DNA of 14,748 nucleotides from Candidatus Eiseniibacteriota bacterium (GTDB lineage: Bacteria; Joyebacterota; Joyebacteria; Joyebacterales; Joyebacteraceae): positions 1 to 14,748 of the forward strand of contig JBDRFG010000091.1 of assembly GCA_043819135.1 (NCBI GenBank), given 5' to 3'. A program made the translations under genes and the position numbers. Of the stretch, positions 2,872 through 14,261 are shown in pieces. The notes beneath the pieces were generated by a model. That model saw only the letters and a program-made list of their open reading frames with translations, was not told the origin of the DNA and did no database searches. Within the stretch, counting starts at the first letter, position 1, and every line of letters starts with the position of its first letter.

Positions 2872-3451
2872 TCAGGGGCCCGCCGGGCCGGGAACGAACA
2901 TCCGAATCCCCATGTCGTACGCATCGTAGTCATCGTAGCTGCCATTCAACCACAGCACGCCCGGAGAGGTAATGCAGGGGCTGACCCGAGGGCCCCCTCC
3001 TTCTCGACTGCTTGTCGGGGAACGACGGACCGGCCGACGTGATCTCGTAGTCAAGCCACTCTGCGCCGTCCCACCGGGCGTACCGGTAGCGATGATCGTT
3101 AGCCGCTGGGAACACGGCATAGACCAACACCGGGCGAACCGATTCGTCCAGCGCGATGTCCCATATCCGCGAGCGCCCACCGGCTTCGGCTCCATCGTAT
3201 ACCTTGTCGGCATCACTCGGGCCGAACGGGAGCTCCACCAGATCCATGACCTCTGACCCGTCCGCCCTGAAGAACGCTCCTCCACGATAGCAGATATAGT
3301 AGATGCTGTTGGCCTCTTCTCCCCGCGGGTGCCCGTCGGTGAAGGCAATGTGGATCGTCTCGTGCCCGTCCGACGCGTACTTGAAGTACGGCTTGACGCC
3401 GGGTCCCTGCATCAGTGGCCTCTCGTCCGTCCAGCTGACCCCATCAAAGGT
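2872..3451 (-). pseudogene. BNR-4 (Asp-box) repeat beta-propeller family gene remnant, 5'-truncated, with an internal deletion/frameshift
   Basis: The 2930-3691 frame carries KPYFKYASDG..IHIAFTDGHPR..NSIYY, SRIWDIALD..PVLVY and DHRYRYARWDG.EW, typical of BNR_4 proteins. The typical C-terminus VLWLNGSYDDYDAYDMGIR lies in a different frame (2872-3348 ORF), with the switch near 2960. Sequence upstream of about 3451 shows no resemblance. Confidence 0.65.
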
Positions 3452-3543
3452 TGGCCGCTGACGCGGCCTCCATTGTGAGGGCGCGCTGTTCAGCGCGCAG
3501 GGCGGTCGAACCCGACGGGTGCGAAGTATCCGTCGGGCAGACA

Positions 3544-3577
3544 AACAGAGAGGCCAGCAAAAGCTGGCCTCTCTGTT
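3544..3577. terminator. Perfect 15-bp hairpin, probable intrinsic terminator downstream of a tRNA-like 3' end on the minus strand
   Basis: AACAGAGAGGCCAGC-AAAA-GCTGGCCTCTCTGTT; on the minus strand it begins 1 nt after ...GGGGACGCCA and ends in TGTTTG. Confidence 0.75.
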
Positions 3578-3578
3578 G

Positions 3579-3608
3579 TGGCGTCCCCTAGTGGACGTTA
3601 TTCGAACT
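3579..3608 (-). repeat. att-like site derived from a tRNA-Glu 3' end (copy 1 of a 27-bp direct repeat)
   Basis: The minus strand reads AGTTCGAATAACGTCCACTAGGGGACGCCA, versus the bacterial tRNA-Glu end GGTTCGAATCCCCTAGGGGACGCCA (recalled from E. coli). Positions 3582-3608 match 8117-8143 at 26/27 nt. Confidence 0.7.
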
Positions 3609-3892
3609 GCCACAGTGCCGTTCACACCTGAACTGACCGCATTCGCGAGTGCGTTGAGACACCAACAACCGAATCCAGCACCCGTGGTCACGCGGTGGGA
3701 TTGAACCCACGTGCGGTTCGGAAACTCGTGTCGCGGAAGGTCCCGTGGGAAGTACCTGCTTTGAAGCTTAGCGTCCCTGAGGTCCGCGGGTTTGAATCAC
3801 CTGTGAAACTGGCTAACCGAGATTGCTGGGCTGCGCTGTGGCGTCGGGCCGTCAGACTGGGCACCTCCGCTGTCCGCTGGCACCCCCTATTC

Positions 3893-4386: not shown

Positions 4387-5763
4387 CTAGGCCCGGCCGG
4401 CGGCCTCACGTAGAGCGCTCTCAATCAAGTCACTAGCGTCTCTTGAAGCGGCCTCTGCGTCTACGAACTTGCTCCAAAGCGATTTGACTTGCTCGCACGA
4501 AGGACTCGGAGGCGGCAGCACCACATCCCCCATGTCCGCTTCGAACGTCGAGTCAACCACTGAACCCGAGGCCTTGGACTTGAGCTGCACCTGCGCATGC
4601 CACGTCCGGATGGCTAGATACAGCCAGCCAGAGTCGATATCTGATTTCGGTACCAGCCTGCCGACATGACCGCTGGCAAGCCAGCCATCTCGGTCGGTGG
4701 TCACCAGGACAGGCGTACCAAGGCCGCCCTCAGCACGTCCATCAGCCTGATACGCAGTCCAGCCGCTTCGCAGTTCGTACCGTCCCACGTCCTTCAGGGC
4801 GCGCGGAGATATGTGCTGCAGGTTCACCGGGTTGAGCTGGAGGATCTGTCGCCCAGAGAGGATTGGTCGCCCATAGTCGGAATCGACATAGACGGTCTTG
4901 TATCGACCACCGGGTTTGCGGACCTCTGCGACATCGCGTACGCGGACTCCTCCTTCGGAGAGGAGCGCACTGCGCACCGCCTCCACCAGTGGGTCGTGGT
5001 AGGCCGCGTCAAGTCTACCGCCGAGGGCATGGTTCTGGACCGACCACCCGGCGCGCAGCGGTGACGTTAGCGTCGGATTCGGAAGAACGTCCTCGTATTC
5101 CGTCTGCGCCGCAGCTAGACCAAGTCTCGCTTCCTCACGGAGAGCCACAGCCCTCCCCATGGCTTCGGCCACTTCCCTGCGCAACCTCGTTTCCAGAAGT
5201 GGTACATGCTGCGCCTCCAGATGGCTCCCGGAGATATGGTCAATCACTGACCCAGTCTTGTCTCGACGCACCAAGTGCTGTGCTGTCTGCGTCTGGAGAT
5301 AAGCTAGGACGTTCAGCCGAACCTCTGCATCTGCGATGCGAACCCGAATCATGTCGTGGCTGAGAACGAACTTGGCCAGGTAGTCATCAACGATGCTCGC
5401 CGGGCCCAGGTTCCTCCCCGAGCAGGACTGCAGAATGAGACCGGCCTGCAGCTGGTACTGCCGGAGCTTCTTTGTCCTCTTCACAGAGAGATAGGCCGAG
5501 GCCAGCGGCAGATACTCGAACACGTCGTAGGGCTTCAGATAGGGAACCCCCACCTCTCCCTCTGCCGCGTACGACCGCTTGAATCGCTGCGGAGCCCAGA
5601 CCTCTGCGATGCCGTCAGAGTCGCCCAGCGTTCCGAAGGACATCCCGCCTGCCCTAGCTTCATCAAGAAGCTGCGCCGCCTGGACACCCGCCGAGAGGTA
5701 GTACATCGCGTCCAGGCGACTTGAGCGTCCCACCACACTAGATTTCACGCTTCTTGTCTTCAT
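4387..5763 (-). CDS. Restriction-modification specificity (S) subunit with two target-recognition domains
   Basis: Two repeated halves, each opening with RLDA.Y (RLDAMYY, RLDAAYH), with ILQSCSGRNLG, TGSVIDHI and SGSVVD..DMGDVVLPP motifs and helical spacers. ATG 5763 overlaps the methylase stop (ATGA), so it is preferred over 5781. Confidence 0.85.
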   Translation of the reverse strand: MKTRSVKSSVVGRSSRLDAMYYLSAGVQAAQLLDEARAGGMSFGTLGDSDGIAEVWAPQRFKRSYAAEGEVGVPYLKPYDVFEYLPLASAYLSVKRTKKLRQYQLQAGLILQSCSGRNLGPASIVDDYLAKFVLSHDMIRVRIADAEVRLNVLAYLQTQTAQHLVRRDKTGSVIDHISGSHLEAQHVPLLETRLRREVAEAMGRAVALREEARLGLAAAQTEYEDVLPNPTLTSPLRAGWSVQNHALGGRLDAAYHDPLVEAVRSALLSEGGVRVRDVAEVRKPGGRYKTVYVDSDYGRPILSGRQILQLNPVNLQHISPRALKDVGRYELRSGWTAYQADGRAEGGLGTPVLVTTDRDGWLASGHVGRLVPKSDIDSGWLYLAIRTWHAQVQLKSKASGSVVDSTFEADMGDVVLPPPSPSCEQVKSLWSKFVDAEAASRDASDLIESALREAAGRA

Positions 5764-7760
5764 CCTTGCGTGTCCAACCACTGTAGATAGGCATCGGCCA
5801 CTTCAGGTAGCTCATCGTCGATAACACGCTCCGCGATGGTCTCCTCGAAAACACGCTCCGCACCGGTCTCCGGGTCTACCTGGATGCTTGTCCGAGACTG
5901 TGATGCCAGAACTTCGTCGCCTTCCGGGGTATGCCGGTAGATGGCGTTCCCCCTCTTGTCGTGGCCGATACTCTCAGCAACCGCCATGAAGACCTCGTAG
6001 TCGAGCTTGCCCTCAGAGACGAGCGCTCGTTCCTTGGCATCGAGCCTCCGCATGAGCACCATCGAGGTCTGAGTGTCGTTTTTCGGCTGGAACAGGTCGC
6101 GAGCCATGTCCACCACAGCAATGACCTGAGCGTTCTGGAGAATCCACTCTCGGACATAGCCCAGCGCAGGGTTGTTCAGTATGCCATTCGGAATGACCAT
6201 CGCCATTCGCCCGGTACCCTCCTTGAGCAATTGCAGGCAACGCTCGATGAAGAGAATCTCGGGCGGCTGTGACTTCTGCAGTACCGGGTTCCCGTGTGAG
6301 GCGAGACGCATCGACCATCGCCCGTTGTCATGCTCGTCCCACCAGGCGGCGAGGTCGAATTGCTCGAGGACGCTCACATCATCGATGACGATTTTGGTGC
6401 CGAAGGGGGGATTTGTGAATAGCACATCTACAGTCCCGAGCTGGATCTTCTTGGTGATGTCCGGATTCCAGGCATGAGGGTTCGCCAGGCTGTCCGCCTG
6501 GAAGAGGTTCCCCTCGCCATCGTTGTTCATCACCATGTTCATCTTCGCTGCTCGGACAAGGGACGGATTCAGGTCAAGTCCAAACACGCACTCGCCCAAG
6601 TGCTCAGCCCGCTTCCGGAAGAGCTCTTGGCGCTCAGCTGCAGTCCCGTTGGTGGGGTCCTTCCACTTCTCTCGCTCACCCTCCTCAAGGATCGCGAGTG
6701 CGTTATTCATGGCGGTTATGAGGAAGCCACCCGTCCCGCAGGCGGGGTCAAGCAGCCGCTCCGATGGCTGCGGAGACAACATGTGAACAGCCATCCTGCA
6801 AGCGTTCCTCGGAGTGAAAAACTCCCCTCGGTCACCGCGCAGATTGGAGCCAACTACTTCTTCGTACGCGACTCCCTTGACGTCGACGGGAGAAGCCAAT
6901 AGGGAGTAGCCCTGAAGCTGGCTAACCACGTACGCCACGACGTTAGCCTTCAGACCGATACTCCCGTGCGCCCCCGTGAATATCTTCGGGTACTTCTTCA
7001 CGACCTTCTCGGCCATGAGCTTCTGTATCCTAGCTCTGGCCGGAGCTGCAGAAGTTGAGTTACGCAACTCCTCTGGCGTCACGTAGAAACCCAGTGAGTC
7101 GGAGCGCTCGTCTTCAATCTTGCAGAAGATGAGCTTCAGTAGCTCCCAAAACGCATCCTGCTTCTGGAGGCCCTCTGTTCCGGCGACGTAGTTGTGGCAC
7201 CGCCTGAACGCGAACAGCAGGTTGTCTGCTGTGGCAGGCATGAGGTCGCTTCGCTTCGGGCGAAACGCCTCCTGCTCGGACTGGCCGAATGCGGGGATGT
7301 CGACTATTGGCTCGAAGGTGTGCTGCCCTTTCGCAGTCCTCTTCGCGAAACAGAAGCGGTCGTCGCCGTTCGTCCAAAGACCGTAGCGCGCGTTCAGGCA
7401 CGCCGCCATGTACGACTTCAGCTGGCCGACGCCCTCCTTCTTGTCCTTGGGATTGGTACCAGCCTTCTTGGTCTCGATGAGGACCACTGCGTTCTCCTGC
7501 AGATGCTTCGCATCATGGTCGAACACGACAATGTCGACACGAGGTTTCGCGCTACCCATCTTGATGCGAAACTCTGGCTTGCAGTCCTGAGCCACATACT
7601 TGTACTGCCTAACAAGCGCCTTCTCGATGTTCTGGCGAACGTACTCTTCAGGAGTGTCCTTCACAGGCTTGTTCGTCAGGAAGTCAATGACGTAGCCCTC
7701 TGGTATCGCCTCGACGTGCACAGCGACCGGTGGAACGTTACTTCGTCTCTTGCGCGGCAT
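5760..7760 (-). CDS. Fused PD-(D/E)XK restriction endonuclease (HsdR_N-like) and N6-adenine DNA methyltransferase, BcgI-like type IIB/IIG RM subunit
   Basis: N-terminal PEEYVRQ...RVDIVVF...LIETKK...QLKSY...WTNG nuclease pattern. Methyltransferase motifs GEFFTPR, LDPACGTGGF (motif I) and NPPF (motif IV), in gamma-class order. AAGGA RBS upstream. Confidence 0.9.
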   Translation of the reverse strand: MPRKRRSNVPPVAVHVEAIPEGYVIDFLTNKPVKDTPEEYVRQNIEKALVRQYKYVAQDCKPEFRIKMGSAKPRVDIVVFDHDAKHLQENAVVLIETKKAGTNPKDKKEGVGQLKSYMAACLNARYGLWTNGDDRFCFAKRTAKGQHTFEPIVDIPAFGQSEQEAFRPKRSDLMPATADNLLFAFRRCHNYVAGTEGLQKQDAFWELLKLIFCKIEDERSDSLGFYVTPEELRNSTSAAPARARIQKLMAEKVVKKYPKIFTGAHGSIGLKANVVAYVVSQLQGYSLLASPVDVKGVAYEEVVGSNLRGDRGEFFTPRNACRMAVHMLSPQPSERLLDPACGTGGFLITAMNNALAILEEGEREKWKDPTNGTAAERQELFRKRAEHLGECVFGLDLNPSLVRAAKMNMVMNNDGEGNLFQADSLANPHAWNPDITKKIQLGTVDVLFTNPPFGTKIVIDDVSVLEQFDLAAWWDEHDNGRWSMRLASHGNPVLQKSQPPEILFIERCLQLLKEGTGRMAMVIPNGILNNPALGYVREWILQNAQVIAVVDMARDLFQPKNDTQTSMVLMRRLDAKERALVSEGKLDYEVFMAVAESIGHDKRGNAIYRHTPEGDEVLASQSRTSIQVDPETGAERVFEETIAERVIDDELPEVADAYLQWLDTQG

Positions 7761-8116: not shown

Positions 8117-8143
8117 CGTCCCCTAGTGGACGTTCTTCGAACT
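8117..8143 (-). repeat. att-like site (copy 2 of the 27-bp direct repeat)
   Basis: Plus strand CGTCCCCTAGTGGACGTTCTTCGAACT versus CGTCCCCTAGTGGACGTTATTCGAACT at 3582-3608. Confidence 0.75.
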
Positions 8144-8426: not shown

Positions 8427-8900
8427 CTACTCCGGATACTCACCGGAGCAGAAGCGATCGAGACCTATACCTATCAGAATAGCTGCAGCGAGTCCCGCGA
8501 TCCCAGCTGCTATTGCACCGGAAACACCAAGCACGACCAGCAACTCGGCTGCTACCGCATTGACAGCCACGCCGCCTGATCCAGACGCAAGGCTCCCGGA
8601 GATAGGCTTGGGAGTCCCCGACTCGCAGAGGGCCTCGCGGAGGATGGTCTTCATGTCGTCGATGTATCGGTGGGCTCTCTTCCGGAGGCCGCTGGCGAGT
8701 TCCTGCAGCTGGTGCCCAAAGAGCTCGTAGTCGTCAATCCCCTCAGCGCCAGCGAGCAGCCTCACGGCCGCAAGGTAATCATCGATGCCCTCAAGTCTCA
8801 AGATCTCGAGGCCAAGAGAGACCTCTTGTTCGGCCAGGCTCAAGCTCGCGGCCCTCTGGGCCACGGTGACTGCCCGCTCAATGTCTGCGTTGGCATACAT
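8427..8900 (-). CDS. Hypothetical protein with a C-terminal Gly/Ala-rich hydrophobic (membrane) segment, last gene of the operon
   Basis: ATG 8900 has GGGAGG upstream and lies 1 nt after the previous stop. The C-terminus is VAVNAVAAELLVVLGVSGAIAAGIAGLAAAILIGIGLDRFC. Confidence 0.7.
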   Translation of the reverse strand: MYANADIERAVTVAQRAASLSLAEQEVSLGLEILRLEGIDDYLAAVRLLAGAEGIDDYELFGHQLQELASGLRKRAHRYIDDMKTILREALCESGTPKPISGSLASGSGGVAVNAVAAELLVVLGVSGAIAAGIAGLAAAILIGIGLDRFCSGEYPE

Positions 8901-8901
8901 G

Positions 8902-9633
8902 TCACAAATCCCTCCCAAGAGACCTGAGCGCTGTGTTGACTACGTCCGTGAGCCAAGTCTTCCTGTCTGGTATCTCCATCTTCTCCTCCGGAGCTAGCAT
9001 CCCATGACTCTCCGCGATGTCGAAGCAGTCCTGAACGCGATGGCCGTGCGGAGGTTCGCCCACACCCAGTTCTCGCTTGTGGTGACGCTCGAACTCCTCG
9101 GGCGTCATCTTGGCGAAGTCGACGTGCCCTTCAGCAATGAGGTTACTGTATCGAATCTCGGCTGTCGCACGCAGCCCCATTAGCCGGAAACACCCCAGTG
9201 GTTCGAAGACCTCTGCCTCCCCAGGATTGCGAATCCCCCCGATGAGCAGCCTGTCGGCAGGAAGTCCGCATTCGACTACGTCTCTCCGGATGCGGTTCAG
9301 TGTGCGCTGCGCCAGCACTCTCCGACCCGCGTCAGCCCTCAGCGAGTCGCCGAGCTCCATCAGCGACCAACGGTCAAGCGGCCATCCGCAACGCAGGGCT
9401 TCGCGCCTCAAATCGTCGGTCAGGCTGTAGTACCGGAATCCCCACTCGCCGACGAGCCAATCGCGCGCAGCACCTCCCCCTGTACCCTTCAGGCTGGCAA
9501 GACCAACCATCAGGCCACACTCAAGCGGTACCAGGAACTGGAACTCCGGGTCCTCAGCGAGCTTGCTGAGTTCCGCCGTGACGCTGCCATCATACCGGCC
9601 ACTGTCCATCGTGCTTGTTCCTCGTCCTTTCAC
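8902..9633 (-). CDS. P-loop nucleoside-monophosphate/dephospho-CoA-kinase-like protein with degenerate Walker motifs (probable pseudokinase)
   Basis: GF.YYSLTDDLRREA, LMELGDSLR..AG..VLA, GIRNPGEAE, A.AEIRY and TPEEF...RE match the kinase domain often fused to dCMP deaminases. Walker A reads GLASLKGTGGG (no GK) and the usual IDGIR reads IGGIR. Start is GTG 9633 (GTGA overlap) or ATG 9609. Confidence 0.75.
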   Translation of the reverse strand: MKGRGTSTMDSGRYDGSVTAELSKLAEDPEFQFLVPLECGLMVGLASLKGTGGGAARDWLVGEWGFRYYSLTDDLRREALRCGWPLDRWSLMELGDSLRADAGRRVLAQRTLNRIRRDVVECGLPADRLLIGGIRNPGEAEVFEPLGCFRLMGLRATAEIRYSNLIAEGHVDFAKMTPEEFERHHKRELGVGEPPHGHRVQDCFDIAESHGMLAPEEKMEIPDRKTWLTDVVNTALRSLGRDL

Positions 9634-10145
9634 TCAGGCCCCAGGCGATGGAGCACCAGTTGTGCAATCCGCGCGCACGGATACAGGGCAATGGGAAGGG
9701 TGCCAACGTTGGCGAGTTCCAGCGTCAGGTTCCCCTTGAAGCCGGCCCTCGCCATAGTCGCAGTGGCGATGACAAGACCTAGCCGTCCCCAGGAAGAGCG
9801 GCCAATGACGTAGCCCATCAATTGGGGCGGCAGACACACATACTCCAGCGTGGAGGCGAGTGCGAACATCCGCGGGTGCAGGTAGAACGGCTGACCGAAC
9901 CGCTGGCGTGAGGATGTCTGGTACTCGGTAAGATCCCGACCCAGCTGACTCTCCTTCACAGGATCAAGCGCGACCAAGCCGGAACGGTTTACAGTGACGA
10001 AGTCATTGGCTAGTCGAAGGTCGACGGACCCCTCGCTTATCTGCAACTTAGCATCTAGTATGGGCGTGATACACAGGCGCTCCTCCAGTGGAGCCGCATC
10101 GTCCGTCAGGAGACCATAGATCTGGTCCTTCGTAAGGACGCTCAA
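9630..10145 (-). CDS. dcd: dCTP deaminase (trimeric dUTPase fold), divergent and lacking the C-terminal lid
   Basis: Motifs SVDLRL, FYLHP..FALASTLEYVCLP, GRSSWGRLGL, GFKGNLTLEL.N.G..PI.LYP..RIAQL. TTG 10145 overlaps the upstream stop (TTGA) and has GAGGAG 5 nt upstream. Confidence 0.9.
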   Translation of the reverse strand: MSVLTKDQIYGLLTDDAAPLEERLCITPILDAKLQISEGSVDLRLANDFVTVNRSGLVALDPVKESQLGRDLTEYQTSSRQRFGQPFYLHPRMFALASTLEYVCLPPQLMGYVIGRSSWGRLGLVIATATMARAGFKGNLTLELANVGTLPIALYPCARIAQLVLHRLGPE

Positions 10146-11644
10146 GGCTGCTCCTCTGGCGGCCACGCGCCTCGGCTCATCCGGCGCCTACTGTCTTCAT
10201 ACTGCCGCGCCAACTCAGCCTTCTCGACAGCCCTTAGCAGCCGCTCGTCGTAGCTGAACCGTTCACTCCACCCGGTCTCCTGCTTGTCCATCGCTCCTGT
10301 GAGCGGTACTTGCTGCGGCTCCATCAGCAGCCCTGCGTTGAGAATCGAACGCCAGTCAGCCATCTGGCTCGACTTCCTCTCCGGACCTGCAAGGAAGCCG
10401 ACCTCCAGTGGGATAATGCGAGCGGAGATCTTCTCGGCCAGATCGGGGACTTCTCGCGCGAACTTCTCCACTCTGTACTGGATTGTGCTCTCGGCGAAAA
10501 GTTGTGTCTTGAGACCCTTGGCTGCACTCAGAGCGTGCTCGTACACCGTCGCGTACGGTTCCTCCATCCGCTTGTAGTGCGTGCTGACAAACGCCTGACA
10601 TCGCTGGTGCAGGGCCCTCAGGCGCCGCCCAACCTCTGACAGGTGGTCCTCCCCAGCTTGCTCTGCGCTCGCCCACTCCACCTCCCAGAACTCCTTAAGC
10701 TCGTCGAGCATCACCATGACCCGGTACACAACGTGAGGATGCTTGGTGAACGGTGGCCGGGGAACATCCGAGTACATGGGTCGCTCGCCTGTGGCAAGGG
10801 CAACAGCCAGCAGGCTGCCGAGGGCGGCCGGACCCATGAGCCAGCAAGCCGCGATGTCCGCCAGCGTCTCCCTGAGCCACGCATCCCATACTTGTGCCGC
10901 GCTGGAAGCGTGCACTGCAAACTCGCCAACCGATAGACCCGGTCTGACTTCGTCTACGGCTTGCGTGATATCCGTGCCGCACTTCTCGAGCTGTCCCGCT
11001 ATGCGCTCGTCGCATTCCCTTGCTTCGATGAGGAAGTGTCCTAGCTCGTGGCCGATGCATGCGTGGTGTAGCAGGCCCGCTCGTTCCAGACTGGGAAACG
11101 AGATGACCACGAGTCGGTGACCGTGTGCGTCTAGGATCCCCTCAACATCGACAGGGTCAAGGCCAAACAGTCTGGACGTATTGTCCGCAGTGTCTAGAAG
11201 AGCTGGGATAACGTCGGGAAGTCGTGCGAGGCAGCCGTAGCCCAGATTCGGTTTCGGTCGCAGCAGTAGCTTGGCCCCGGGGTCTATTTGCTTCACGAGA
11301 GCTTCGACCGCGGATTGCAGTCCAACAGGAGCGCGTACCGACGTGGCACTCTCGACCATCGACACGTACGGTACGCAAGCAAAGAGGCTTCTGGTAATCG
11401 ACTGCAACTCCTCGTCTGCGGCGTCAGGATCGATGGATCCCTCACTGACGCCCTTCTTGACCTGACGTATGATCCTCGCCGCACAGCTAAGAGCCCTGAG
11501 CTGGGTCTCCACAAACAGAGCAGACCCCTCAGAAAGGGGCCTGCTCTGGTCTCTGATTTCAGTCAGCCGACGCGACGCCCATAGAGCAGTGAGCAGACCT
11601 GCACTAGCCTTCGCGTCGATCACGGAGCAGCGCGGATCAGCCAC
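10142..11644 (-). CDS. Zincin-like (HEXXH) metallopeptidase-fold protein, 500 aa
   Basis: IGHELGHF, a downstream third-ligand helix WLRETLADIAACWLMGPA, and KHP...YR resembling the M48-type HP....R motif. No signal peptide is apparent. Confidence 0.7.
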   Translation of the reverse strand: MADPRCSVIDAKASAGLLTALWASRRLTEIRDQSRPLSEGSALFVETQLRALSCAARIIRQVKKGVSEGSIDPDAADEELQSITRSLFACVPYVSMVESATSVRAPVGLQSAVEALVKQIDPGAKLLLRPKPNLGYGCLARLPDVIPALLDTADNTSRLFGLDPVDVEGILDAHGHRLVVISFPSLERAGLLHHACIGHELGHFLIEARECDERIAGQLEKCGTDITQAVDEVRPGLSVGEFAVHASSAAQVWDAWLRETLADIAACWLMGPAALGSLLAVALATGERPMYSDVPRPPFTKHPHVVYRVMVMLDELKEFWEVEWASAEQAGEDHLSEVGRRLRALHQRCQAFVSTHYKRMEEPYATVYEHALSAAKGLKTQLFAESTIQYRVEKFAREVPDLAEKISARIIPLEVGFLAGPERKSSQMADWRSILNAGLLMEPQQVPLTGAMDKQETGWSERFSYDERLLRAVEKAELARQYEDSRRRMSRGAWPPEEQP

Positions 11645-11659
11645 CTGTCACCCTCGAAG

Positions 11660-12184
11660 TCAGGCCGTTGTCATCTGATACTGAAGCTCATCCAACTCAG
11701 GCATCAAGACACGTTGGATGAGGGATTCCAGAAAACTCTCAAGCTCGGTCAGATTCTGTGAGACGGTTAGCCGTTCGGGAGATGGGATCTTCTCCAGTTG
11801 CTGGTACTCGATCATGGCCCCCAGGGCCCGACAGTATTTCTCTACTCTCGTAGGAATGTCCTCGTCCATTCCCTCACCTGCCGCAGAACTAGCCAACACG
11901 CTGTTCGCTCGGCTCGCCACGAGCATCGCCTTCACCGTTGGGAGCCGCGGAGTAGCTTCGCCGTTACCGACAGACAACAGCTGACAAGGCGGCGAGCCCA
12001 TCAGGGCCCCCGCCTGGATGTCGGCCACGAACTCAAGGCCTCGGTAGACTACAGGAACCGCGCGCGGCGCAAGCTCACCGCCACTGAGGAATTCGCGCAC
12101 CAGGCGACGAAGCACCCCTGCGACTGAAGCCATGCGAGTCACGGAGCCTGCGATTCCTGCGTAGTCCTCAACCGTATATACCAT
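11660..12184 (-). CDS. Hypothetical protein, predicted alpha-helical, 174 aa, first gene of the operon
   Basis: ATG 12184 is preceded by GAGGTTAAGGAGA; the stop is 15 nt before the next start. No recognisable motif. Confidence 0.65.
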   Translation of the reverse strand: MVYTVEDYAGIAGSVTRMASVAGVLRRLVREFLSGGELAPRAVPVVYRGLEFVADIQAGALMGSPPCQLLSVGNGEATPRLPTVKAMLVASRANSVLASSAAGEGMDEDIPTRVEKYCRALGAMIEYQQLEKIPSPERLTVSQNLTELESFLESLIQRVLMPELDELQYQMTTA

Positions 12185-12362: not shown

Positions 12363-12436
12363 GTCGCGGTAGAACCGCCAGTTACCCGACGGCCCCCGCA
12401 CAGATCCCGGCGTGCGGGTTTCCCGCACCGGGCTCT
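12363..12436 (-). ncRNA. Group II intron catalytic domain V and domain VI
   Basis: AGAGCCCGGTGCGGGAAACCCGCACGCCGGGATCT (AGC triad, GAAA-type loop, AC bulge), then GGGGCCGTCGGGTAACTGGCGGTTCTACCGCGAC with a bulged A and a terminal AC. Confidence 0.88.
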
Positions 12437-12467
12437 TTAGTGGTTCTCGCTTCCGCATCAAGACCCA

Positions 12468-13754
12468 TCAGGAACTCGAAGCGCCCGCGGACGGCGCGAT
12501 CACGGGACGCGGAACCTGGAGGTGTTCCAACAACTCACGAAAGCCGGCCCAGTTATAGCTCCGGCGATCGCTCCGTCGGTTGAGCCACTTCTGAAGGATC
12601 CGCATCGCCGCGAAGTGGAACTGCCACAAGCTCCGGGAGTTGCCATAGATCCCGAAGTACCGGTAGTAGCCGCGGAGCTTCTGACTCACCTCGGCGAGAA
12701 GTCGGCGTACAGGAGTATGCCGGTGTTCCCGGCACCAGAGGGTGAACCGCGCCAGCGACCTGCGCAAGCTCTTCCGAGCCGTCCGCCGCTTCAGGTGCGG
12801 TCGCCCCTGCCGGTCCCGACCCCAACGGAACTCGAAGCCGAGGAAGTCGAACGCCTCGCGCCCGTCTCCCTCCCGATCGAACCCTAACCGGCGGGTCTTC
12901 GTCGGGGAGAGCTTCAGCCCGAACTTCGACAACCTCACTTCGAGCTCGATCAGGAATCGGCCGGCCTCCTCCGCGTGCTCGAACGCGCAGACGACGTCAT
13001 CCGCATAGCGGATGAGGCACGCCTCGCCTCGACAGGCACGCACCACCTTCCGGTGAAACCAGAGATCCAGGACGTAGTGCAGGTAGACGTTGGCCAGTAC
13101 CGGGGAGACAACGCCTCCCTGGGGGGTCCCCGTCGCCGGGTGTACCACCTGACCGTCGGTCTCCAGCACTCCGGCCTTCAGCCACTTCCGGATCAACCGC
13201 AGGAACGGTTCGTCGTCAATCCTCTCTTTCAGCATCCGCCCGAGCCAGTCGTGGTCGATCGTCCCAAAGTAGTTCTCCAGGTCGATCTCGACGACGTGAT
13301 GGTACCTCCCGAACTGCAGCTTCACCGTCAACTTGTCGATCGCATCATGAGCACCGACCCTGGGCCGGTACCCGTAGCTGCAACGCAGAAAGTCCTGCTC
13401 GTAGATGGCTGAGAGGATCCGCGCTACCGCCACCTGCAGTAACTTGTCCTCCACCACCGGGATCCCCAGAGGACGCTCCTTGCCGTTCTCTTTCGGGATC
13501 CAATGCCGCCGCACCAGCTTCGCCCGGTATCGCTTCTCCTTCAGGCGCTCCACAAGGCTTCGGATGTTCGTCGCCAAGTCGCGCTCGTACTCCCGCGCGC
13601 TGACCCCGTCCACCCCGCTGGCCGCGTTCTTGCGCACCCAGCGCCAGCTCTCCGCCAGAAAATCCTCGTTGAGCATCCCGTACAGATTGCGGAACCGGTG
13701 CTTCGATTCCTTCCGCGCCTTGTCCGCTATCCCCTGCAGGGAGGTTGACAGCAC
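12468..13754 (-). CDS. ltrA: Group II intron reverse transcriptase/maturase without a C-terminal endonuclease domain
   Basis: Motifs ASGVDG, IPKENGKERPLGIP..EDK, SYGYRP, D...YF..IDH, GTPQGGVVSPVLANVYLH, RYADD and FDFLGF, plus the domain X motif LRGYYRYF. No HNH. The frame is open to 13901; GTG 13754 (before STSLQGIA) is my preferred start but is uncertain. Confidence 0.93.
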   Translation of the reverse strand: MLSTSLQGIADKARKESKHRFRNLYGMLNEDFLAESWRWVRKNAASGVDGVSAREYERDLATNIRSLVERLKEKRYRAKLVRRHWIPKENGKERPLGIPVVEDKLLQVAVARILSAIYEQDFLRCSYGYRPRVGAHDAIDKLTVKLQFGRYHHVVEIDLENYFGTIDHDWLGRMLKERIDDEPFLRLIRKWLKAGVLETDGQVVHPATGTPQGGVVSPVLANVYLHYVLDLWFHRKVVRACRGEACLIRYADDVVCAFEHAEEAGRFLIELEVRLSKFGLKLSPTKTRRLGFDREGDGREAFDFLGFEFRWGRDRQGRPHLKRRTARKSLRRSLARFTLWCREHRHTPVRRLLAEVSQKLRGYYRYFGIYGNSRSLWQFHFAAMRILQKWLNRRSDRRSYNWAGFRELLEHLQVPRPVIAPSAGASSS

Positions 13755-14261
13755 TACGTCCGGTCCGTCGTGCCCGGCGGCTGTTTCCTTTGCAGGCTGC
13801 GAACCCCTGTCCACCGCTTCCCCCTGTGGGCGGCTCTCCCGCCCTCCGAGTACTACCAGTGGATCTGACTCCCGAGAAACCATCGCCAGCCCTTTCGGCA
13901 CTGCCTACCCGGATCCCTCCGGGAGTCCCTCGGGTCTCCCAAGTTCCTGTCGCCTCTCTCCACGCATGCCGCGCTCTTCGTGGACCCCGGCAGGCCCTCC
14001 GGGACCTCGCCCTGGCGGTCCCTTCGTCTTGGCTTCCGGCACGTTAAAACCGTCGCCACCTGCTTCACTGACGAGGCTGTATCAAGCTTCAAGGAGTGCG
14101 GTCTCCCCTACGGCCTACGTGGTTCCCTGTGTACGCTTCGGATGCTTCGTTCGGTAATGCGTACCTCCTGACATCCGCAACACTCGGTACGAGTGGTTGG
14201 CTAGACCTTACTCGGCAGGGACTCTCACCCTGCAAGAGACGCCAAGCTTCGCTTGGCGCAC

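Follow-up and report, generated by a model that had tools for sequence, protein, structure and literature searches.

Four adjacent genes (g1–g4) in a 14,748-nt stretch of DNA from a Candidatus Eiseniibacteriota bacterium, the whole of which is referred to here as the window, are tentatively interpreted as a gated dCTP deaminase: an accessory, probably anti-phage module for nucleotide depletion. The putative module joins a small helical protein, a gluzincin-like protein, a dCTP deaminase (Dcd) core and a kinase-like protein that carries the missing Dcd tail. The sequence-only reading of this DNA knew no named system of such composition and none was matched in PADLOC 2.0 or NCBIfam 20; the zincin-partnered split-Dcd module is apparently undescribed so far. 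All five minus-strand reading frames of that reading are present with the junctions it described: a 15-nt gap between g1 and g2, a TTGA overlap between g2 and g3, a GTGA overlap between g3 and g4, and a 1-nt gap between g4 and g5. A codon-position GC pattern is common to g1–g5 (GC2 0.44–0.47, GC3 0.65–0.70). The features are listed below.

12184-11660, minus strand: g1, 174 aa, with an ATG start preceded by AAGGAG; the longest ORF extends to 12301.
11644-10142, minus strand: g2, 500 aa, GTG start.
11036..11050, minus strand: HELGH zinc-binding motif, g2 residues 199-203, an invariant HExxH column block in the g2-family alignment.
10145-9630, minus strand: g3, 171 aa, core of a dUTPase-fold dCTP deaminase, lacking the C-terminal tail.
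9777..9803, minus strand: GRSSWGRLG motif of the g3 Dcd, invariant columns G122-G130.
9717-9719, minus strand: invariant Glu of TLEL in g3, column E150.
9633-8902, minus strand: g4, 243 aa, begins with a Dcd C-terminal tail and continues with a domain of NMP-kinase fold that is related to the kinase domain of AvcD.
9514..9603, minus strand: Dcd C-terminal tail motif, g4 residues 11-40, tail-profile match at E 9e-7.
9472..9504, minus strand: degenerate Walker A loop of g4, with Gly in place of both Lys and Ser.
8900-8427, minus strand: g5, 157 aa, hydrophobic C-terminus; module membership doubtful.
12363-12437 and 13975-14225 (Rfam matches), with an RT ORF at 12468-13901: group II intron directly upstream of the operon.

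The identification of g3 as a dUTPase-fold dCTP deaminase was borne out by matches to PF22769 (3.7e-31), TIGR02274 (123 bits; cut-off 92.8) and phrog_1663 (2.6e-35). Its GRSSWGRLG and TLEL motifs, which are invariant in 35 sequences (columns numbered from a 178-aa ORF), align to GKSSLGRLG and TLEL of the solved Dcd chains 2qlp/2qxx (E 5e-23). This alignment stops at residue 154 of the 190-residue chain, and full-length relatives of g3 are 40–60 residues longer than g3. A profile built from 70 tails of full-length Dcd relatives found g4 as its only match below E 1 among 224 six-frame ORFs of the window, and it also matched 8 of 9 other g4-family N-termini at E<0.01. The Dcd tail of g3 has been relocated to the start of g4; this arrangement, the most unusual feature of the operon and one absent from the sequence-only reading, is newly recognised here. 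The segment has low pLDDT in the monomer model of g4, and an alternative g4 start, an ATG at 9609 with GAGGA ahead of it, is present. Structural work on E. coli Dcd suggests that the tail acts as an active-site lid. Since the tail is encoded at the start of g4, a complete enzyme would need g3 and g4 together. The Dcd/tail-kinase split recurs in 7 genome and 13 metagenome loci (five near-identical), with overlaps of 0–20 nt in differing frames, and two further loci encode Dcd-tail-kinase fusions of 441 and 437 aa. Dcd lies directly upstream in 13/13 of the tail-kinase metagenome loci, and g2 is also found in all 11 that have enough sequence.

The remainder of g4 fits its earlier description as a P-loop pseudokinase, having an NMP-kinase fold and a degenerate P-loop. 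The AF2 model (pLDDT 84) retrieved adenylate and UMP-CMP kinases in Foldseek (E 4e-7, TMt up to 0.84). Among profiles, g4 matched PADLOC dCTPase at 4.4e-10 and NCBIfam antiphage_deaminase at 1.2e-5, the latter far below cut-off (NF041025, 24 bits against a cut-off of 400). PADLOC dCTPase is matched by 8 of 10 g4-family members, with a best value of 2.8e-21, whereas the generic AAA_17/18 families reach just 1e-8. Judged by these matches, the kinase-like domain is a homologue of the one in AvcD-type anti-phage deaminases. The earlier proposal that such a domain is paired with a dUTPase-fold deaminase holds, and the pairing recurs. The Walker A motif G-x-x-G-x-x-x-x-G-K-S is kept in 9/9 g4 relatives and has lost Lys and Ser in the window copy alone; from its sequence, this g4 should no longer be able to act as a canonical kinase, and the loss may reflect decay rather than specialisation. 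A distinctly unlikely reading takes the whole window copy as a decaying remnant, not a working system in its host genome. The loss of the Walker A residues (1/10 members), the long branches or strong divergence of the window Dcd and g2 (the closest g2 relative is 27% identical), and flanks made up of a group II intron and an R-M insertion agree with this. However, the five ORFs are intact, with translational coupling and Shine-Dalgarno-like sites, and all invariant alignment residues of g2, g3 and g4 are kept, bar Walker A.

The HEXXH protein is g2, which carries the HELGH motif. A search of 1.84e9 representatives returned 237 relatives at E<=1e-3; in the recurrent module the protein has ~480 aa. 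In an alignment of 40 sequences H199, E200, H203, E259, D263, R308 and P412 are invariant, and HExxH is kept in 38/50 g2-family loci and in 15/15 kinase-type loci examined. Neither Pfam nor PADLOC holds a family matched by more than one of 40 members, and no NCBIfam family was matched; the PADLOC capP model was met by 1/40 (E 0.0099). From its sequence we describe g2 as a gluzincin-like protein. Its AF2 model (pLDDT 86.7) aligns over residues 94-313 to ZMPSTE24 (Z 7.4, rmsd 3.4 over 148 residues), a Z value that the tool gives as common for helical models. The nearest named Atlas clusters contain Peptidase_U49 (Lit family) in 20–23% of members, which at a score of 0.79 is a lead only.

These features could also belong to a conflict module with the zincin as effector and Dcd-kinase as sensor or trigger, where a nucleotide signal would activate the protease against a host target in the manner of abortive-infection proteases; or to a toxin–antitoxin (TA)-like addiction unit, with g1/g2 neutralising a toxic Dcd. 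We regard both as unlikely. The invariance of HExxH, E259 and D263 across 40 diverse sequences, the Lit-family lead, the ZMPSTE24 alignment and the tight g1-g2-g3 coupling, like that of TA operons, speak for such a role, but no Pfam peptidase family is consistent across the 40 g2 members and the ZMPSTE24 value is within the common range. In addition, the catalytic motifs of the g3 Dcd are invariant, and it should therefore be an enzyme, not merely a sensor.

The proposed tie between the HEXXH protein and the deaminase is supported by gene order and by modelling. In 50 of 80 Dcd-subfamily genome loci a g2-family ORF immediately precedes Dcd on the same strand, usually overlapping it by 4 nt; in two of these 50 the genes are fused (746 and 700 aa), and about 9 of the 150 g2 relatives listed are 705–746 aa long. 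The modelled g2-g3 complex scored 0.70 (best of three controls 0.00), with at least 82% contact agreement between runs and a partner pLDDT of at least 79; the calibrated mark for this score is reached by 116/157 solved complexes and 2/215 mismatched pairs, a calibration that holds roughly here, where our own alignments were used. The predicted interface comprises g2 residues 404-422 and 474-485, where the conserved motifs IPPNE and KAIE are located. The HExxH protein is a constant and, on this model, probably physical partner of Dcd.

The slot upstream of g2 is filled by a same-strand ORF of 148–192 aa in 26/50 g2-bearing genome loci and in 3 metagenome loci. Homology of g1 to these ORFs is marginal: with a combined profile g1 was the best of 234 sequences (E 0.002, 12 bits), and with a profile of kinase-type ORFs only the match was not significant. 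No family was found for g1 or g5 in Pfam, PADLOC, NCBIfam or PHROG. The gene g5 has GGGAGGGA ahead of its ATG, a coding-like GC pattern and a hydrophobic C-terminal stretch of ~40 residues (Kyte-Doolittle >1.6 over residues 108-152). No relative was found by tblastn in 80 loci and no same-strand counterpart in the 5 kinase-type metagenome loci with downstream genes listed; its Atlas look-alikes are unnamed. Consequently, the five-gene unit proposed earlier, with g5 as its membrane protein, is reduced to four genes: linkage of g1–g4 is above chance and recurs elsewhere, but that of g5 does not, and g5 is probably either a gene added in this lineage or one unrelated to the module.

The operon does lie between an att-like repeat with R-M genes and a group II intron. 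A 27-nt direct repeat (26/27 identical) at 3582-3608 and 8117-8143 brackets a methyltransferase and S subunit resembling MAD2 and MAD5 of MADS; both are below NCBIfam cut-offs (608 vs 720 bits, 231 vs 400 bits), and the mad models are unmatched by any of g1–g5. This pair, with a repeat bracket of its own separate from the operon, is a neighbour and not part of it. The expected conserved neighbourhood was found, g1–g4 recurring together, and the expected enrichment near defence genes was present but modest: specific defence or mobile neighbours occur within 5 kb in 4/14 other kinase-type loci (AbiEi+AbiEii; IetA, 1e-65, with an integrase; a DNA methyltransferase, 3e-36; BilC, 4e-17) and in 0/12 controls. 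These counts, in which the loci are related to each other, follow removal by Pfam of generic matches (ClpB-like, NHL repeat, subtilase, HTH, ABC); raw PADLOC matches at E<=1e-6 number 8/14 vs 4/12, and the seven control-locus matches are all ABC ATPases. No module relatives were found in phage collections, plasmid collections or viral contigs.

A vertically inherited dcd is ruled out by the relatives searched, as a Dcd above cut-off occurs in 0/7 same-genus and 0/11 same-family genomes. Likewise g2 occurs in 0/30 relatives of the window genome, with no four-gene module among the 30, in 0/60 genomes of the family of G031, and as one weak match among 60 genomes of the family of G033. The 14.7-kb contig may be mis-binned, because none of the three contig genes tested (Dcd, g2 and an 835-aa protein) has a same-genus ortholog, and this possibility weakens the comparison with genus and family relatives.

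The main rival, which we find somewhat doubtful, is that the genes encode a regulated dCTP deaminase of several subunits serving the normal supply of pyrimidine (dTTP). Here g2 would be a regulatory subunit docking on Dcd and g4 a nucleotide-sensing or channelling kinase-like subunit, and the patchiness would stem from replaceable routes to dUMP rather than from immunity. It draws on a near-universal set of g2-family partners in one Asgard class (10/11 genomes), where the g2-Dcd loci sit among housekeeping genes in conserved order (ribosomal protein L10e, DRG-type GTPase, PEP synthase). The linked Dcd is the sole Dcd over cut-off in 5/5 host genomes tested, and dNK kinase and dCMP deaminase are neighbours in 2/50 loci. 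Bacillota and Synergistota members of the Dcd clade follow taxonomy in the tree, and their upstream partners share C-terminal motifs only (weakly; hhalign E 0.004, 0.0007). Yet the core-like versions are those without HExxH, which is missing from 9 Asgard and Thermoproteota loci, one fusion and all Bacillota and Synergistota partners, whereas HExxH-bearing versions are sporadic. It is not obvious what dTTP supply would gain from a strictly conserved metalloprotease site, and the profile closest to the kinase domain is that of defensive AvcD rather than one of a metabolic kinase family. The window copy also adjoins an R-M pair and an intron, in a lineage whose relatives live without Dcd. Nucleotide-depletion defence by kinase and deaminase, as first proposed, gains from the recurrent pairing and the AvcD-kinase homology, but loses from the core-like versions without HExxH in the wider g2-Dcd family.

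Compared with housekeeping Dcd and bifunctional Dcd:Dut (TIGR02274; 2qlp/2qxx, 1xs1, 1ogh), g3 shares the fold and catalytic motifs. Unlike them, it falls in a clade of its own, which a long branch separates from the canonical Dcd of distant relatives, has a g2-family partner ahead, ends ~35 residues early with its tail supplied by the next gene, and is missing from the 18 genus and family relatives searched. AvcD/DcdV (PADLOC dCTPase, NF041025) similarly couples a P-loop NMP-kinase-like domain, homologous to that of g4, to a (d)CTP-deaminating domain, has an accessory distribution, and has dCTP depletion as the expected output, which requires both domains (Tal et al., 10.1101/2021.04.26.441389; Hsueh/Severin et al., 10.1101/2021.03.31.437871). 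However, the dUTPase fold of g3 is unrelated to the zinc-dependent CDA fold of AvcD (PMC3239186). The order here is deaminase then kinase, the reverse of AvcD; usually each has its own gene, and the kinase carries the Dcd tail. The module further includes a zincin-like partner and a small protein encoded upstream, and an AvcI-like RNA is not known for g1–g4. In CBASS with its metallopeptidase regulator CapP (10.1101/2022.04.27.489752) and in nuclease-protease pairs (PMC12799240), a peptidase-like protein is likewise reported beside an effector enzyme that would be harmful if unregulated, but the partner here is a nucleotide deaminase and proteolysis by g2 is putative; g2 resembles CapP in arrangement, and in sequence the only link is the one capP match among 40 g2 members (E 0.0099).

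We return to the gated deaminase as our preferred, though tentative, reading. While the cell is at rest, g2, perhaps together with g1, would hold the Dcd core inactive or unassembled, through the predicted contacts of the g2 C-terminal module. An infection cue would switch the zincin, either through a change of conformation or through cleavage of g1, of g2 itself or of a linker. Assembly of the g3-g4 complex would follow; there the tail would complete the active site, and the kinase-like domain of g4 would serve as a nucleotide-binding regulator. Conversion of dCTP to dUTP or dUMP would stall phage DNA synthesis, the same outcome as with AvcD reached via an unrelated deaminase fold. If this is true, the module would starve viruses of a DNA building block.

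Five co-oriented genes lie in the right half of the window: g1, a small protein; g2, a 500-aa HExxH protein; g3, a dCTP deaminase (Dcd) of the dUTPase fold; g4, a kinase-like protein; and g5, a protein with a hydrophobic C-terminus. The sequence-only reading took them for a kinase-plus-deaminase defence system, and the gene boundaries that it described are reproduced here: a 15-nt gap between g1 and g2, a TTGA overlap between g2 and g3, a GTGA overlap between g3 and g4 and a 1-nt gap between g4 and g5. Its description of the flanks also holds, with a methyltransferase and S-subunit pair of restriction-modification (R-M) type and a repeat on one side and a group II intron on the other. The window is one complete contig (14,748 bp) of an assembly of 2.69 Mb in 174 contigs, and its features are as follows.

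309-2816, left end of the contig: 835-aa PDZ and ShlB/Omp85-like protein
2930-3691: BNR_4-like ORF, matching profile positions 134-270 of 272 only
3582-3608 and 8117-8143: 27-nt direct repeat, 26/27 identical, with a short hairpin inside
4387-7760: MAD2/MAD5-like methyltransferase and S subunit (NCBIfam, both below cut-off)
12184-8427, minus strand: the five ORFs g1-g5 (ORF calls)
12363-14225: complete-looking group II intron (Rfam D1-D4 and D5/6 matches)

The intron RT/maturase scores 354 bits over its cut-off, and because the intron ends ~180 nt upstream of the g1 start codon, the promoter region of the operon is intron-adjacent. On the other flank, the methyltransferase scores 608 bits (cut-off 720) and the S subunit 231 bits (cut-off 400), and the window holds no R subunit or further mad gene beside them. 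Only these two neighbours resemble mad2 and mad5, below the NCBIfam cut-offs; g1-g5 match no mad1-mad8 model, and the module is not MADS. The repeat copies enclose the pair together with three small ORFs that have no family. A genome-wide element was ruled out, as the assembly holds a single extra copy of the repeat, with 3 mismatches, on contig C120; the repeat may be an att-like site left by insertion of an R-M islet, or else a short element that occurs repeatedly. Given the partial profile match, the BNR_4-like ORF looks N-terminally truncated near the left repeat copy.

By profile g3 is a Dcd (PF22769, E 3.7e-31; TIGR02274, 123.1 bits against a cut-off of 92.8; solved Dcd chains, E 5e-23), yet it is truncated and partnered. 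Its GRSSWGRLG and TLEL motifs are invariant in an alignment of 35 relatives and align with the solved chains. Full-length relatives run 40-60 residues past the last core strand in a conserved tail; for E. coli Dcd, structural work describes the tail as an active-site lid. The g3 ORF ends ahead of this tail, where the 190-residue chain 2qxx has residue 154, and is thus not a complete Dcd polypeptide. A profile built from 70 tails of full-length Dcd relatives, none from loci with a g4-family gene after Dcd (kinase-type loci), matched residues 11-40 of g4 at E 9e-7, the sole match below E 1 among 224 six-frame ORFs of the window. The same profile matched eight of nine other g4-family N-termini at E<0.01.

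For the g3 subfamily the best 80 genome loci were retrieved, and a g4 relative directly follows Dcd in nine of them. Seven are split like the window, with a short Dcd and then a kinase ORF that opens with the tail, overlapping by 4-20 nt; in the other two, Dcd, tail and kinase make up one protein (441 and 437 aa). Scanning metagenomes with the g4 alignment gave 45 loci, 13 of the tail-kinase type (five of the 13 near-identical), with Dcd directly upstream in 13/13 and g2 in 11/11 of those with enough sequence. A frameshift or assembly error at the g3/g4 junction was ruled out by the recurrence of the split, with varied overlaps and frames, in seven genome and 13 metagenome loci, and the arrangement is therefore inherited. 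In a maximum-likelihood tree the Dcd of the window groups with eight kinase-linked Dcds (support 92/92, with a long-branch caveat). There is, then, a subtype with a kinase gene whose product, an AvcD-type kinase-like protein, bears the Dcd tail.

No Pfam family matches g4. Its kinase part matches the PADLOC model dCTPase (AvcD-type) at 4.4e-10 over profile positions 205-312 of 630, and it folds as an NMP kinase (AF2 pLDDT 84; Foldseek matches to adenylate and UMP-CMP kinases at E 4e-7), so that it corresponds to the kinase-like (PLK) domain of AvcD/DcdV. Eight of ten family members match the AvcD model, at best at 2.8e-21 compared with 1e-8 for the generic AAA_17/18 families. The other AvcD/DcdV domain, a CDA-fold zinc deaminase placed C-terminal to the kinase in the same polypeptide, has no counterpart in g1-g5; here, unlike in AvcD/DcdV, the deaminase is a separate gene upstream of the kinase and has the dUTPase fold of PF22769/TIGR02274. 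The AvcD model NF041025 gives 24.4 bits against a cut-off of 400. AvcD/DcdV systems also encode a small RNA antitoxin, AvcI, upstream. Rfam at gathering thresholds returned two group II intron matches only, which says little on AvcI, for which the library is not known to have a model. With CDA fold, domain order and single polypeptide all lacking, the module would act in the manner of AvcD/DcdV but falls outside that class.

Two reports on AvcD describe an intact Walker A motif as needed for activity (10.1101/2021.04.26.441389; 10.1101/2021.03.31.437871). In this motif g4 of the window has Gly for both Lys and Ser; all nine g4 relatives have canonical GKS, and only the window copy departs from it. 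This copy may be decaying, an explanation that we consider very unlikely. All five ORFs share one codon-position GC pattern, and Shine-Dalgarno-like sites lie upstream of the g1, g3 and g5 starts and of an alternative g4 ATG at 9609.

Kinases related to g4 also occur as stand-alone proteins of ~185-205 aa that have no Dcd tail and no adjacent Dcd or g2 (L089, L091, L092, L094, L095, L097, L099-L101, L107, L108, L111-L117, L119, L120, L122, L123, L125, L126, L128-L130), and as longer fusions of 390-444 aa (L127, L131-L133). In three Solirubrobacterales loci a small DUF4325 (STAS-like) ORF and a 243-330-aa partner converge on the 3' end of the kinase gene (L057:9399-10768, L070:9267-10571 and L078:9277-10418); among these partners there is one weak HATPase_c_2 match and one DrmA-like match. 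Small opposite-strand ORFs fill the same spot in four more loci.

The last gene does not share this conservation. g5 ends in about 40 hydrophobic residues and had been proposed as a conserved membrane effector, a proposal that did not stand: tblastn gave no match in the 80 loci, and in five long kinase-type metagenome loci the operon ends at the kinase, with no same-strand downstream counterpart. It is outside the conserved unit.

Searches with g1, g2 and g5 gave no match in Pfam, PADLOC, NCBIfam or PHROGs, save a chance-level PHROG match for g5, and word-index protein searches with g2 and g4 returned the window's own proteins only. Exhaustive phmmer over 1.84 billion representatives found 237 relatives of g2 at E<=1e-3, mostly of 450-520 aa, with about nine of 705-746 aa. 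The HELGH motif of g2 lies within a set of residues invariant in 40 aligned sequences (H199, E200, H203, E259, D263, R308 and P412), and the first four make up, at motif level, the gluzincin signature of HExxH plus a downstream Glu as third zinc ligand. No Pfam or PADLOC family was matched by more than one of these 40 members. Foldseek with the g2 model against the PDB gave nothing at E<=0.001, and a PDB sequence profile search nothing below E 0.029. VIA-align placed residues 94-313 on ZMPSTE24 (6bh8, Z 7.4); its matches to residues 1-181 were discarded as generic helical bundles. In Atlas the nearest named clusters carry Peptidase_U49/M48 (score 0.79), which is a lead only.

When the 80 loci were searched with a g2-family profile, a family member was found directly upstream of Dcd on the same strand in 50, mostly with a 4-nt overlap, in bacteria and archaea alike. 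Two of the 50 are natural g2-Dcd fusions.

L018:6318-8558: fusion of 746 aa
L041:6507-8609: fusion of 700 aa, without HExxH

An ORF of 148-192 aa precedes g2 in 26 of the 50 loci, and the homology of the window's g1 to the upstream ORFs of other loci is marginal. A recurrent g1-g2-Dcd module exists. Modelled as a 1:1 pair, g2 and g3 gave a complex score of 0.70, compared with 0.00 for the best of three controls; among solved complexes 116 of 157 attain this score, and among mismatched pairs 2 of 215, figures that apply only approximately because the alignments used here were our own. Model runs share at least 82% of contacts, with partner pLDDT of at least 79. The predicted interface comprises g2 residues 404-422 and 474-485, which hold the conserved IPPNE and KAIE motifs, and the HExxH site lies outside it. 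g2 is therefore predicted to dock on Dcd, and the natural fusions support this.

Some g2-Dcd modules have further neighbours. ThiF-family E1-like genes adjoin them on the opposite strand in L020, L067 and L075, with a Prok-E2_E gene also present in L020, and in L045 (Acidimicrobiaceae) a second, partial DCD-like gene lies downstream of the pair at 8952-9716 (PF22769, 3e-11).

HExxH is kept in 38 of the 50 loci; the 12 without it are nine Asgard/Thermoproteota loci, a fusion and two ORFs truncated where their contig stops. It is also kept in all 15 kinase-type copies examined and in the window. The zincin could itself be the effector, or the genes a toxin-antitoxin-like addiction module, either of which we regard as quite unlikely. 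The copies that look like core genes are those without HExxH. In one Asgard class 10 of 11 genomes have a g2 relative, placed in conserved order among L10e, a DRG-type GTPase and PEP synthase. A further set of Dcds from the same clade has shorter upstream proteins.

L012, L015, L019, L021-L023, L025-L027; G156-G165: g2 partner without HExxH before the sole Dcd, set among conserved housekeeping neighbours; Asgard (Jord/Frey-type) and one Thermoproteota genome
L043, L046, L048-L054, L058, L059, L068, L069, L072, L079, L082-L084, L087: Bacillota Dcds of the same clade, preceded by 200-290-aa proteins

The HExxH-less Asgard/Thermoproteota partner may represent a Dcd subunit that annotation has missed. 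The 30 loci that gave no g2 match belong to Bacillota and Synergistota, where the upstream ORFs encode 200-300 aa and show a weak likeness to g2 confined to C-terminal motifs; in Bacillota, VVPHE-like and KAIEG-like motifs are common to these proteins and the predicted Dcd-docking C-terminal part of g2 (hhalign E 0.004). In five of five host genomes tested the linked Dcd is the sole Dcd over the cut-off. The main rival to a defence function is that Dcd, as a regulated enzyme of several subunits, serves ordinary dTTP supply; this reading is favoured by the core-like members without HExxH, and we consider it somewhat unlikely.

Among relatives of the window's lineage, Dcd over the cut-off occurs in 0/7 same-genus and 0/11 same-family genomes, so a vertically inherited housekeeping Dcd is not seen there (the contig may be mis-binned), and g2 occurs in 0/30. 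The 835-aa PDZ and ShlB/Omp85-like gene likewise has no ortholog in the seven same-genus genomes. Either the contig is an island specific to this strain, then, or it has been mis-binned, and the second possibility weakens the comparison with relatives. Elsewhere, 60 other genomes from the family of a Nitrosotenuis host gave no g2, and 60 Solirubrobacteraceae genomes gave one weak match.

ORFs within 5 kb were scanned against PADLOC at E<=1e-6. At 14 kinase-type loci 11 of 125 ORFs, in eight loci, matched a model, compared with 7 of 128 ORFs, in four of 12 loci, in the Bacillota and Synergistota control; all seven control matches are ABC ATPases by Pfam. Kinase-type matches to a ClpB-like ATPase, an NHL-repeat protein, a subtilase and HTH proteins were judged generic by Pfam. 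Several PADLOC labels of neighbours were overturned by this check (PDC-M37B/DolB, a ClpB-like ATPase; PD-T4-6, an NHL-repeat protein; mad3/mad8, ABC transporters). After this filter specific defence matches remained at 4/14 kinase-type versus 0/12 control loci, namely AbiEi with AbiEii, IetA (1e-65) next to an integrase, a DNA methyltransferase and BilC. The excess is suggestive rather than strong, and it comes from loci that are mutually related. Around the wider 50 loci the neighbours range from R-M, toxin-antitoxin, integrase, IS66 and ThiF/E2 genes through to ordinary metabolism, with dNK kinase and dCMP deaminase genes in two. Plasmids and phages gave no tblastn match to g2, and viral contigs searched with the g4 alignment gave no confirmed relative; these absences are weak evidence because the searches were single-sequence or pattern-limited and the family is very divergent.

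Taken as a whole, we tentatively favour a defence function, at somewhat less than even confidence, in which g2, perhaps with g1, would gate Dcd, g4 would complete and regulate it, and the output would be dCTP depletion during infection. A more elaborate form of this proposal is a three-way gated immune enzyme. Here the Dcd core would be held by the new zincin-like family via its C-terminal docking module and would become active only once the AvcD-type kinase-like sensor supplied the missing C-terminal active-site segment in trans; kinase-coupled dCTP depletion would then have been invented a second time, independently, and the system would be derived from, or ancestral to, a zincin-dead regulatory partner of housekeeping Dcd in Asgard archaea and some Bacillota. 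We consider this full scheme unlikely.

A full-text literature search, limited to main texts outside subscription journals, turned up no account of a module that joins Dcd to a zincin or to a kinase. Two mechanisms for which we found no description can be tested: an enzyme that has its final segment on a separate, regulatory subunit, and the docking on Dcd of an HExxH family that has 237 relatives among 1.84 billion representatives and no Pfam, PADLOC or NCBIfam family. If the module serves metabolism, the Dcd of a whole Asgard class and of several bacterial lineages would have an obligate, unannotated partner subunit, and the annotation of dTTP synthesis in those organisms would change. If instead it serves defence, kinase-coupled dCTP depletion would have arisen twice, on unrelated deaminase folds, and nucleotide starvation would be a convergent solution rather than a one-off.
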